Positions 1,430 through 61,113 are shown, counted from the whole stretch's first letter. The stretch is DNA of 62,959 nucleotides, filler included, from 7 parts of 7 records of this genome joined end to end with filler, not necessarily neighbours in it; one strand, 5' to 3'. Program-made: numbers and translations. The notes: generated by a model not told the origin, from the sequence alone.

Positions 1430-1456
1430 TACCGAACTCGAGATCAACGGACAAAC

Positions 1457-1783
1457 ATGGCCCGCCTTGATTAGCGTGTGCCAGACGCGTGCCTCGAATC
1501 CCACGCGAAACACGCCTACTGGCGAAAGAACTGCGTGGCGACATGTGGCTACTGTTCCGATCCGAGGTACAATTCGGCTCTTGCGGTCGGTCCACAGTTC
1601 AGAAGCACCATCAGTCCCATAGCTGTGCCCACACAGGTCGACGGGGCGGAACGCGTGGTCCAGCTTCTTCCTTCTCCTTCAGTGCATATGATAAAATGGT
1701 GCTTGCGAGTATTCAACCTGAGAGGCAATTTGTTTCGATTATTCCGTCATTTCGATTACCACCTCGCTCCAATCGATTTATAA
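1457..1783 (+). pseudogene. Possible gene relic containing a truncated ShKT-like Cys motif
   Basis: Frame encodes C-x13-CVATCGYC (the last four Cys of an ShK domain). The in-frame ATG at 1457 is followed by TAG at codon 6. Confidence 0.3.
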
Positions 1784-1906
1784 ATCGACGGTCCTCAGCC
1801 ACTCTCACTAACCGAAAAATCTGGTCGCCGGTCAAAGACGCTTGGCGGAGGGAAGAGCCGCGGCGCATCGCCCTCCTTCGCCTCCCCGCCCTCCTTCTTC
1901 TCGCTA

Positions 1907-3300
1907 TGTCGCGGCGGGGGACCACGCTGATCCTCGGAGCGGCCGGTGCCGTGGGCAAGCGCCTGTGCGCTGCGCTCTCGGCCCGGGGCAGCCGGCTGGG
2001 CATCTTCGACCAGAGGATCGTGGCCTCCGACCGGCACCTGTAAACACCCTCCTAGTGGCCGGCTGGGCTGCCCAGCTTAGACGGACGAGTCGGTGTCGGC
2101 TGACGGCGTTGGGCCAGATACCTCCCGGGCAGCCTCCAGCGGACGGTGGACGTGGTGGTGGACTCGTGCGACGTCCGCAACCCGGCCGCGCTGGAGCGGC
2201 TGTTCTCGCAGCACGCGGACGAGCACTCGGTGGTGTGGAACCTGGCGGCCCCGCTGTCGGTCGAGACAGCACTCAATCCGGATCTGGCCGAGGAGGTCAC
2301 GGTGGGCGGGATGGCCAACGTGCTGGGCGCCATGGCCAAGGTAGGCTGCCGCACCATATGCTTCACCGATTCAATCGGCTCGTTCGGCGGGTCGGCCCCG
2401 CGCGAGTCGGTCTCGGCGCGCTGGCTGGTGGAGCACCCGGAGCAAGACCCGGGCAGCGACTATGGCCGGCAGAAGCGGGCATGCCGAGAGCTGATGAGGG
2501 CGTTTGAGGAGAAGCACGGAGGCGACCCTCGCTGGGCGGTGCTGCCCGGAGTGCTGCATGCCGAGCCAGTGTGGGGGAACGGAACCACTGAATATGCCCT
2601 GGATGCGCTGCTGGCCGCCTCCTCGGGCCGGCCGTTTGTGTGTCCTATAGACCCTGATGTGATGCTACCGATGGTGTTCACCGATGACCTCATGCGCGGG
2701 CTGCTGTTGCTCCAGGATGCTGAGCGGGACCGGCTCAAGGAGCCGGAGAGCGGGTACTGCCTCCGTGGAATCTCGTTCACCCCTAACCAGCTATTCGCGG
2801 AGATCCGTAAGCACATTCCCGAGTTCGAGGTGAGGGTCGAACTGAACGAGGCTCCGGCGCAGTTCGCTCAGCTATGGCCGGACACGTTGAGCGGGGCCGA
2901 GGCTGAGCGGGACCTCGGGTACAGCCCGGAGGTCGACCTTGCAAAGATGGTCGAGCATGTACTCTCGGCCCACACGCAGCGGAATAACAAGAGCCGGGCC
3001 ACTCTGCGCCAGATCGCCACAATCGACCGGGCGCTGCTCGAGCAGTACGTTCGCAAGCACTTGGTGCGTGGACGGGAAGCGTTTGGGTACATTGCGCGGC
3101 GGCAAGACATGGTGAGCGCGATTGTGGAGGAGGCGATGGAGGAGATGGACGAAGACCGGGACGGGAAAGTGTCGCTGGGCGAGTTTGAGGAGTGGAGCCG
3201 CAGGAACTCGCTCGAGAAGACGGTAGACAGCTACGTGGCCAAGAACCACCCGCAGATTCACGAGAGAGCGGTGCTATTGTGGGGCGTGCCGCCACCTTAG
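1907..3300 (+). CDS. TDH: SDR-type L-threonine 3-dehydrogenase-like protein with a C-terminal EF-hand; one GC-AG intron (2034-2117)
   Basis: LILGAAGAVG Rossmann motif, YGRQK (YxxxK), GNGTTEYA, LPMVFTDD and QLWPD match SDR-type TDH. DEDRDGKVSLGEF is a canonical EF loop. Removing 2034-2117 joins IVASDR to YLPGSLQ in frame. Confidence 0.8.
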
Positions 3301-58697: not shown

Positions 58698-58880
58698 GCT
58701 GCCGCGAGCTCAGTAAGTGCCTGCATTCGCTATCGTGAATCTTGCTTTAAATCAGCTTCAAGGCGGCGGGGTCCCTCGGAACTGAAGCTACGTATGTACA
58801 TACCTAGCTACGTGACGCATACCGTGAATTAAACTTAGCGTTAATATCACAAATATCATTAATAACCGGCCTCCATCGAA

Positions 58881-60987
58881 TCATAATTGCTCTCGAGCAT
58901 CATTGCTCCATCGAGCAATGATGCGGGTTTGCTCCGGCATTGCTTGCGATTGCGCTTGCGAGATTCTCAACGCATCCTGATAGGGCGTTGTGATCTCCTC
59001 TTCGTCGATCGCCAAGTCCCGGCCTTCTTGGTCGGCCGATTGCAGTGCCTCTAGCATGATCTCGCTGCTCTCGATCCACTGCCAGCCACTCAGTTCTAGT
59101 CGGCAGGCTTATGGGACTGCCTTTTGCTTGGCGGCCGGCGAGAGCTTGATGTCCAAGTCGTCCCAGAGATCATTCCTCGCAACCAGGAGATAGAACCCGA
59201 TCATCTTCACCCCCCGACTCAGCCGCCTCAGCCAACCCGCCGGCACCGTCAACGCGGTAGGATGTTCGGTAGTCGAATACTGCGGGACCAGCCGCTTTAT
59301 CTGGTCGATCCTAGCTCTATCGACAGAGCCCATACCGGCTCTGCCTCCCTTGATCGACTCCAGAGTGCTCACTAGCTCCTCGATTTCGACCAGAAAATTG
59401 CAGTCAGTGTCCGCAGAGACGAACGCCTGGTTCAGTTTGAATCTGGCTTCTTCGGACTCAAATATTGTGTCGTTATCTTTCCACCGTTCCACCGCAGCGT
59501 GAATCTGCTTCTGGAGCTCCTCAGGATTCTCCTCCAAGCTAGCCGACGCCGCAGTCTCTTGATCAAACAACTGCCAGCCGATCAGCAGAGCCATCTGTTG
59601 ATTGGACCTGCTCCTCGCAACTGTTGCTCTCGTGTCGACAGCCCAGCCGGTCACGCTCGAGCCAGTCTTGGTCGTATTCGCCTGCACCGATCATCAGGCT
59701 ACACACCGAGCCTGGGCACACCCCAGCCGCGCGAACGCTGCTCGTAATAGCCCTCAGGTCGCAGCACAAGCGAGCACCGCCGACGCCGGTACCTGCAAAC
59801 CTGGTGGGTCGCCGCACAAGCCGGCGGGCACTCGCGGTTCCAGTCTTTGTGCCCGAAGAAGGTCTCGCTGATCGTGGGCGTGAGAAAGTTCCAGATGTAG
59901 CTTGAGACAGTCAGGCCTTGGCTGACGGTGAACAGATACCCATTCTGGAGCGCCTGCGCCGTTATCAATGCGGAGGCCTGCAGGGGCTGGACACCACGAG
60001 GGTCGCATACATCAGGTTGCACTGGGAGAAAGCGAGCACAAAGAAAGCAAAAACAAGCTCAACTACGTATGTGCTCTCCGACTGCGAGATGCACCGAATG
60101 CTCTGGTAGCCGCTCCATGAGGAGACGCTGCAAGGCAGAGCTGAGTCGTAGTACGCCTTTCGAGTGAGGTAGACTAAGCTCAGGATGAGCCCTGCGAGCG
60201 TGAATCCGAGCACTCCGAGAGAGTAGATCACCATCATCAGACGACCGTTCCGATAGAACCAGCGCTCCCCGACTGTTCCCATGAATGGATCCAGCCCGTA
60301 CCGCTTGACCATTCTGAGTCGCATCACGTCGGATAGGGCAAACATTGCAGCCTCGATTAGAATTAGCCCGCCTACAGTAATCAGTAGGTATCGGCAACTG
60401 CGCTGGACATCGCGGCTTGTGCTCAGCTGGACGTCCGTCACCCTGCACACGCTCTCCAGGATGGCAGCCAGCTTGCTGTCGCCGCCATGATACTCATCGC
60501 CCAGGCCATCCGTCCACGGGCCGCTGCCGCTGTAAGTGGCCCCATGCACGGCGCTCTGCCCGGTGTAGGCGCTGGTCGAGAGGTACGGCGAGTAGTGGTT
60601 GACCACGTCGCTGATGGTGAGCGTGATGCAGGTGCTGATTAGCCCTATTTTGACAAGAATATACCACCCGGCGAGCGCCCACACCCAGCCCGCGTTGTCT
60701 CTCAGCGCCACTGCGGCGTCCATCAGCAGCTTGATCGACTCAGTGGCGCTAACGGTTATCCGGCGCGGCTGGGGGCTCACCCGCAGGTCGGCCCACTGCT
60801 CCCCGCGCAGTGTGAGGCAGCCGGGCTGGTCCATTACGGTCTGGAGGTGCAGCTGCTTCATCCGGCGGAACAATCGGTGATTGGCCACCTTTTGTACTTC
60901 CAACTCGGCCCGCAAGTGGTCCGGCAGCCAGCCGGTCCCCGGCCTGGGCGGTCTGTCCGCCGCCTCCCCGGCCTGACTAAACCACAT
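58881..60987 (-). CDS. Multi-pass membrane protein with an EF-hand-like loop, spliced
   Basis: Several hydrophobic helices in the 340-aa ORF; a downstream exon carries ADTDCNFLVEIEEL. 3' end tentative. Confidence 0.6.
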
Positions 60988-61113
60988 CCTGCCGAGCTCA
61001 CTGGGTAAGAGTCAGCTCGCTGGTTGCGCCACTTGCGGACTCGCCGGATGATTAACGGCACTCTAACGACTTCCGTCGCCAAGGCGACTCGTCGGACTGG
61101 CATTTCCGGGCTG

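Follow-up and report, generated by a model that had tools for sequence, protein, structure and literature searches.

The window and its recurrent YAACGG word

The DNA analysed here (the window) comprises 62,959 bases and is a chain of seven contigs of 4.9–16.2 kb each, which carry eukaryotic, tightly packed genes. Directly upstream of nearly all curated start codons in this window we found the short word YAACGG, mostly followed by A or C and present in one or two copies per region. This putative promoter element is the subject of our analysis. Proteins encoded in the window match the Pfam families aminotransferase, EF-hand, GH32, GNAT, Oxidored_FMN, DnaJ, metallo-beta-lactamase, TPR, PhyH, and Ion_trans, as well as GTPase, methyltransferases, Metallophos, ankyrin, PRP38, Exo_endo_phos, and adh_short. 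Neither Rfam families nor tRNAs were found in the window, and the GC content varies between 0.48 and 0.67 in 2-kb windows. The contigs are artificially joined, and therefore gene order, orientation, and neighbourhood across the six joins are meaningless.

Contig joins (linker N44-TTAATTAATTAA-N44): 16199–16298, 23664–23763, 29957–30056, 34967–35066, 40331–40430, and 53343–53442.

Counted over the whole window, YAACGG shows a mild excess, with 60 copies compared to 45.56 ± 6.73 in shuffled sequences and 3 of 100 shuffles reaching 60, so that any claim about the word hangs on its position. In a blind test, open reading frames (ORFs) were chosen by dicodon score and the first ATG of each was taken as the start. 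This resulted in 25 starts, several of which are actually internal exons. All hexamers in the 80 bp upstream were counted, and the gene starts assumed in an earlier sequence-only reading of this DNA were not used. AACGGA ranked first, with 12 of its 30 window copies located upstream (13.3-fold, p = 2.6e-10), and ranks 2 and 3 among all hexamers went to CCGTTA/TAACGG (7 of 18 copies) and CAACGG (9 of 42 copies). Around the same 25 starts, 19 AACGG cores lie between positions –80 and –1, whereas the other 40-bp bins from –400 to +400 contain 0–3 cores each. The strong enrichment claimed in the sequence-only reading thus holds near gene starts and does not extend to the window as a whole.

Start codons were then curated from ORF structure and Pfam coordinates. 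The curated 5′ regions contain 28 of the 96 AACGG cores in 3,311 bp, i.e., in 5.3% of the sequence, which corresponds to 8.46 cores per kb compared to 1.15 per kb elsewhere (binomial p = 1.4e-12). At least one core is present in 19 of the 20 regions, whereas with random placement 4.1 regions on average contained a core, and 13 at the most in 20,000 trials. The boundaries of three regions (R5, R18a, and R19) were drawn with the motif position known; without these three, the count is 16 of 17. AACGG is also the top pentamer of the curated 5′ regions, occurring in 19 of them when 4.3 are expected. At the level of single genes, a core lies 0–82 nt upstream of 26 of the 30 curated starts, and the element is present on all seven contigs.

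All short divergent spacers of 87–133 bp (R4, R7, R8, R9, R14, R15, and R16) carry one or two copies. Convergent 3′ spacers, by comparison, contain a single core in 2,205 bp, and this near-absence shows that the element is tied to gene starts and not to non-coding DNA generally. Within the window, the upstream frequency therefore exceeds the background, as the sequence-only reading had expected. When we applied the identical upstream-hexamer pipeline to 13 groups of unrelated eukaryote metagenome contigs, AACGG-type words were never among the top six and reached counts of 0–2. Some of these control contigs showed upstream words of their own: ACAAAC (10 of 13 copies) and CAAACA (10 of 15) upstream of 9 ORFs in contig L028, and GCAGCC (32 of 97) and GCTGCC (32 of 123) upstream of 49 ORFs in group L023 (L023, L025, L026, L027, and L029). 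Such words could have promoter or leader functions in other lineages, or could reflect runs of low complexity.

The copies near gene starts, with the strand of the element and the associated genes, are as follows.

1445–1450, plus strand: CAACGG(A), 16 nt from ATG 1429 of the minus-strand aminotransferase gene and followed by a plus-strand gene, which has its first ORF ATG at 1543 and a Rossmann-type exon with ATG 1906.
3449–3475, plus strand: tandem CAACGG (3449) and TAACGG (3470) upstream of GH32; the second copy touches ATG 3476.
5268–5287: outward inverted pair CCGTTA...TAACGG(A), 24–39 nt upstream of the GNAT ATG 5312.
7285–7305, plus strand: TAATAACGGA twice in tandem in a divergent spacer of 119 bp, flanked by ATG 7207 (minus) and ATG 7327 (plus).
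10298–10310: outward inverted pair CCGTTA/AAACGG; the Oxidored_FMN gene has its second ATG (10319) 8–16 nt downstream, and its Pfam domain begins at residue 100 of the longer ORF.
11986–11991, minus strand: CCGTTG, 21 nt upstream of the DnaJ ATG 12012 and antisense to the gene.
14267–14272, minus strand: CCGTTA in a divergent spacer of 93 bp, flanked by ATG 14214 (minus) and ATG 14308 (plus).
17855–17860, minus strand: CCGTTG in a divergent spacer of 133 bp, flanked by ATG 17801 of the TPR gene (minus) and ATG 17935 of the PhyH gene (plus).
23408–23424, minus strand: tandem CCGTTG/CCGTTA, 58–69 nt upstream of the Ion_trans ATG 23349 (minus).
29698–29703, minus strand: CCGTTT, which reads AAACGGA on the gene strand and precedes ATG 29643 of a large gene without known function by 54 nt.
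30907–30984, minus strand: two cores, GAACGG (30907) and CAACGGA (30979), in a divergent spacer of 217 bp, flanked by ATG 30824 (minus) and ATG 31042 (plus).
35911–35916, plus strand: GAACGG(A), 74 nt upstream of ATG 35991 of a coiled-coil gene.
39334–39351: outward pair CCGTTA...TAACGG(A) in a 126-bp divergent spacer between ATG 39269 (minus) and the adh_short ATG 39396 (plus).
44146–44156: overlapping outward pair CCGTTCAACGG in a divergent spacer of 87 bp, flanked by ATG 44112 of the GTPase gene (minus) and ATG 44200 of the methyltransferase gene (plus).
46953–46975, minus strand: tandem CCGTTG/CCGTTA in a divergent spacer of 111 bp, flanked by ATG 46887 of the phosphatase gene (minus) and ATG 46999 of the ankyrin gene (plus).
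53519–53524, minus strand: CCGTTG, 62 nt upstream of the PRP38 ATG 53586 and antisense to the gene.
56291–56296, minus strand: CCGTTG (CAACGGA on the minus strand) between the Methyltransf_16 stop (56311) and the Exo_endo_phos gene.
57146–57151, plus strand: CAACGG(A), which precedes ATG 57219 by 67 nt; the spacer probably separates this gene from a divergently transcribed Methyltransf_16 gene.
61053–61058, plus strand: TAACGG, which lies just past ATG 61048 (plus) and precedes the minus-strand ATG 60987 by 66 nt.

Each coordinate that the sequence-only reading listed does carry its hexamer, and the diverse Pfam families found downstream of the element agree with its statement that the genes are functionally unrelated. 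Three of its assignments to gene starts need revision. Position 55687 falls inside a Pfam-supported Exo_endo_phos coding sequence on the minus strand (54905–56071), and the contig ends 55 nt away from 16139, where a gene is not verifiable. The copy at 61053 had been counted among the gene-start sites; it lies 5 nt past the first ATG of the plus-strand ORF (61048) and could count as an upstream site solely in the case that translation begins at the second Met (about 61114), which opens a signal-peptide-like stretch. The copy at 56291, which is located 219 nt from the first ATG (56071) of the Exo_endo_phos gene, might belong to the start of that gene.

Sequence, orientation, and spacing of the element

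The promoter copies share the consensus A-n-Y-AACGG-M with the core AACGG. This core is strict: changing any one of its bases gives 15 variants, and in the 5′ regions no such variant is enriched, the highest value being 1.9-fold. The flanks of promoter copies differ from those of the other copies: T at –1 was found in 12 of 28 promoter copies compared to 6 of 68 others (p = 0.0003), and A at +1 in 17 of 28 compared to 13 of 68 (p = 0.0001). In addition, 23 of the 28 promoter copies have Y at –1, 26 have A or C at +1, and 15 have A at –3. The flank differences (Fisher p 0.0001 to 0.009) are independent of how the copies were chosen, since flanks played no part in selecting them. Three strong copies read TAATAACGGA. 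Beyond the consensus positions the flanks hold no information, showing that the element is not a dispersed repeat. The consensus conforms to the Myb element Y-AAC-K-G in its G form. AACTG, the form with K = T, is unenriched in the 5′ regions (5 of 118 copies), which indicates that the G form alone is used.

Eight of the 10 close pairs in the window (≤30 bp) sit in promoter regions, four of them tandem and four inverted, with spacings of 6, 8, 11, 13, 15, 15, 17, and 21 bp. Such variable spacing fits independent monomer sites. All four inverted promoter pairs read CCGTT...AACGG, i.e., they point outward, and none points inward; the sequence-only reading had described this rule correctly, although the number is too small to carry weight. 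Relative to the gene, 20 copies are in sense and 19 in antisense orientation, and 10 of 26 genes have an antisense copy alone. The core lies 0–82 nt from the ATG, and the distances have no sharp mode. The gap measures 0–24 nt where the upstream neighbour lies on the same strand, and copies in divergent spacers are found at 33–93 nt. The element thus occurs in either orientation and with free spacing, as is typical of a monomer site. The copy abutting the GH32 ATG must lie in the leader or at its edge. No second motif stood out in the 5′ regions once the element had been masked, and a TATA box is not general, with TATAAA present in just two of the curated 5′ regions. The proposed independence from TATA is thus borne out.

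Introns, 3′ flanks, and genes with few relatives

The spliceosomal introns of the window are very short (about 39–50 nt), with GTGAG or GTGGG at the 5′ end and GTGCAG at the 3′ end. A CTRAY-like word lies about 10 nt ahead of the 3′ end; the boundaries were read by eye. The introns were seen as in-frame stops within open coding frames at the following positions.

Short introns: 27846–27888, about 36420–36464, about 37072–37112, and 9162–9215.

An alternative genetic code was considered as the cause of the in-frame stops and rejected, because the stops fall within these introns of about 39–50 nt. The 3′ flanks are AT-rich: within 200 nt after 21 stop codons we found 12 of the 41 copies of TAATA and 14 of the 74 copies of ATTAA. 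A general poly(A) signal was not found there, as AATAAA follows 2 and TGTAA 3 of the 21 stop codons. TGTAA had been considered as a poly(A) signal marking green algae and was dismissed, since it is not general.

The minus-strand gene at 23953–29643 comprises about 1,900 codons with one short intron, and its second half is rich in predicted hydrophobic stretches. It matches no Pfam family, and a search of 5.8 billion proteins with its 1,261-aa ORF returned no relative at an E value of 0.001 or better. The GH32-like secreted protein (3476–5122) matches Pfam with its C-terminal GH32 domain only. It has just seven relatives in a large protein collection, the top one at 63% identity, and the JGI relative lacks the N-terminus. 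The top protein match of the aminotransferase is 53% identical and derives from an MMETSP transcript. The nearest clusters in the Atlas gave mixed taxa, with Chlorophyta as the most frequent phylum in one look-up and Bacillariophyta in another, a result that is not decisive.

Candidate readers of the element and their implications

A strict word that is near-universal, orientation-free, and flexible in position points to the site of an abundant DNA-binding protein and not to a TATA or initiator (Inr) signal of fixed geometry. Since Y-AACGG is a Myb recognition core, we favour a Myb-repeat factor as the general promoter-marking protein. The wider Myb consensus is YAACKG, and the plant MSA element, which is read by 3R-MYB, has the core AACGG. 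A high-affinity site of B-Myb is TAACGGTG (10.1101/2022.06.13.495963). The element resembles c-/A-/B-Myb and MSA sites in its identical core, in the Y at –1, and in its behaviour as an orientation-free monomer.

Overall, we consider it reasonably probable that YAACGG(A/C) is a genuine DNA-level promoter-proximal element, most likely the site of one abundant factor, most probably of the Myb-repeat type, which marks promoters. Enrichment, position, strict sequence, flank preferences, and the absent strand preference are observations; the identity of the factor and its action are what we infer from them. In the proposed mechanism, one or two copies of YAACGG(A/C) would be present at nearly every RNA polymerase II promoter region, including the divergent spacers of about 90–130 bp, and would act irrespective of orientation and without a set distance to the start codon. 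The site would be read by one abundant sequence-specific protein, most probably with Myb repeats of the R2R3 or 3R type. By marking the promoters of unrelated TATA-less genes, this protein might keep them open or recruit the basal machinery. The Myb-type core-promoter system suggested in the sequence-only reading survives in part: the element is promoter-specific, and its refined form Y-AACGG-M fits a Myb recognition element, whereas the mixed orientation and the ATG distance of 0–82 nt fit a position-flexible factor site better than a core element in the strict sense.

Several points weigh against the proposal of a promoter-marking Myb-repeat factor. No Myb domain was detected among the 40 ORF translations scanned, all of them from the window. 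Vertebrate Myb also accepts AACTG, which is unenriched here, and the T at +1 of the B-Myb site is rare in promoter copies (1 of 28). Four of the 30 starts (ATG 1906, 33419, 56071, and, as annotated, 61048) have no core within 150 nt, and some of the curated start codons are uncertain. Finally, the evidence base consists of about 20 promoter regions within 63 kb.

The strongest alternative, which we nevertheless regard as unlikely, is that the word is a true core promoter element or initiator, located at the transcription start site or at a fixed distance from it and directing start choice via a dedicated Myb-like factor. By analogy, the closest known parallel among protists, in which basal promoters contain a Myb-like word, is motif 3 (M3) of Trichomonas vaginalis with its binding protein M3BP. 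In a review (PMC4693282), M3 is reported to resemble a Myb recognition element and to be bound by the Myb-like M3BP; promoters with an Inr serve about 75% of the genes of Trichomonas. M3, which is described as a core element, is one among several motifs and belongs to those found at Inr-less genes. Both systems combine a Myb-like word near the gene start with TATA-less protist promoters, probably short leaders, and a Myb-like reader proposed to take part in basal promoter recognition. Unlike in Trichomonas, a single word here accounts for 19 of the 20 promoter regions, irrespective of its orientation and with varying distances.

A core element would account for the near-universal presence of the word at unrelated promoters and for the lack of TATA and other motifs, and the YA at its beginning may correspond to the pyrimidine-purine step of an initiator. 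Related sequences provide a further hint. A metagenome scan with the PRP38 exon detected 66 loci, of which two are close (88% and 87% identity) and the others at most 77% identical; a scan of prokaryote genome contigs for the relatives' DNA gave no match. The two close relatives, the only ones found, are intronless, full-length PRP38 transcript-like metagenome contigs (L001, 1–1368, and L002, 1–1204). Their PRP38 leaders of 39 and 48 nt are both without the core, which in the window lies 62 nt upstream of the PRP38 ATG, hinting that the core would be placed about 15–25 nt upstream of such a start. These contigs are, however, possibly 5′-incomplete and are not alignable to the upstream region in the window. 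In all 32 loci inspected, the core is absent from the stretch of up to 130 nt before the PRP38 match. ATG triplets are also sparser between core and start (6 in 1,208 nt) than in the 1,208 nt upstream of the core (13), the window mean being 0.013 per nt. As a proxy for the start site we discarded this depletion, since it loses significance when one corrects for in-frame ATGs, whose absence between core and start is given by construction. The fixed orientation to transcription expected of a strict core element is not seen, as sense and antisense copies are almost equally frequent and over a third of the genes with a core have an antisense copy alone. Moreover, the distances to the ATG are spread evenly, and the copy abutting GH32 would leave no leader.

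Yeast general regulatory factors act in nucleosome exclusion and insulation, and one of them, Reb1, covers a minority of yeast promoters. The sites of Reb1, Abf1, and Rap1 lie in promoter spacers, are free in orientation, are common to divergent genes, and are absent from 3′ spacers, and the element shows the same distribution. Reb1 has a Myb-repeat DNA-binding domain and recognises the core GGGTAA (PMC8970589). The element is comparable to a Reb1 site in being a short, orientation-free promoter site that serves unrelated genes and is often located in divergent spacers, and the reader of the Reb1 site is abundant and has Myb-type repeats. The sequences differ, with AACGG here and GGGTAA in the case of Reb1. 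For Drosophila OVO, a further study (PMC11410370) describes TAACNGT as enriched near germline start sites without fixed spacing and proposes that promoters are conditioned for the basal machinery. The OVO motif is nearly the same word (TAACGG...) and likewise lies close to starts without fixed spacing. In its behaviour, the proposed factor would be closest to Reb1-type general regulatory factors and Drosophila OVO.

The likeness to OVO raises the question whether a general promoter mark could be read by a non-Myb protein, e.g., an OVO-type C2H2 zinc finger or a lineage-specific family. We consider this doubtful. The unfixed spacing of the OVO motif near start sites and the failure to find a Myb domain in the ORF translations scanned from the window are consistent with such a reader. 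In contrast, OVO, an animal C2H2 zinc finger with tissue-specific function, needs a T directly after the core, and this T is present in 1 of 28 promoter copies of the near-universal element described here. The strict AACGG with Y at –1 is furthermore a textbook Myb core. Myb proteins occur across eukaryotes, whereas OVO is restricted to animals.

It is very improbable that the element defines one regulon, such as G2/M genes controlled like those of the plant MSA element through 3R-MYB, in which the window happens to be rich. Although AACGG is identical to the MSA core, animal Myb and MSA sites serve particular gene sets (proliferation, G2/M) whereas the word analysed here is found at almost all genes, and AACTG is unused. 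The cores lie at 26 of 30 starts on seven independent contigs, and the genes are not restricted to one co-regulated class, since metabolic, chaperone, splicing, channel, and no-family genes are all represented (aminotransferase, GH32, GNAT, Oxidored_FMN, DnaJ, metallo-beta-lactamase, PRP38, methyltransferase, and genes without a family). An action at the RNA level, with the word in the 5′ leader affecting translation or stability, would suit the several copies that are 0–24 nt from the ATG and hence in or at the edge of the leader, but is hardly credible for an element of which half the copies are antisense and single copies are common to divergent gene pairs. Chance, or an artefact of the earlier choice of start codons, is equally hard to credit and was refuted in the window at p below 1e-9: despite a whole-window count that exceeds shuffles only mildly and at least three earlier assignments that were wrong or unverifiable, the blind tests are independent of the earlier starts, random placement hits at most 13 of the 20 regions, the flank differences lie outside the selection, and the control contigs do not return the motif.

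The promoter-marking Myb-repeat factor can be extended to a bolder form, which we put forward tentatively as a possibility. A single Myb-type factor may have taken over promoter specification in this protist lineage, with YAACGG(A/C) as the sole recognisable signal at about 90% of RNA polymerase II promoters, serving both divergent genes from a spacer of about 100 bp and replacing positioning by TATA or Inr. A full-text search of main article texts, which may have missed a description under the organism's own name, returned no comparable element for algae or protists. Promoter words that dominate in one lineage are already known as a kind, as are promoter factors of the Myb type.

Promoter recognition beyond animals, fungi, and plants is poorly known, and the known protist cases each represent a different solution; Trichomonas has the Inr and M3, Giardia has AT-rich initiators, and oomycetes have Inr/FPR elements. 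If the favoured reading is true, a Myb-type word of 5–7 bases at nearly all promoters would constitute a very simple promoter code. It would directly aid gene finding and start-codon choice in this lineage and make minimal synthetic promoters possible. The lineage would also offer a test of whether Myb-repeat proteins can be general promoter markers instead of gene-specific factors.

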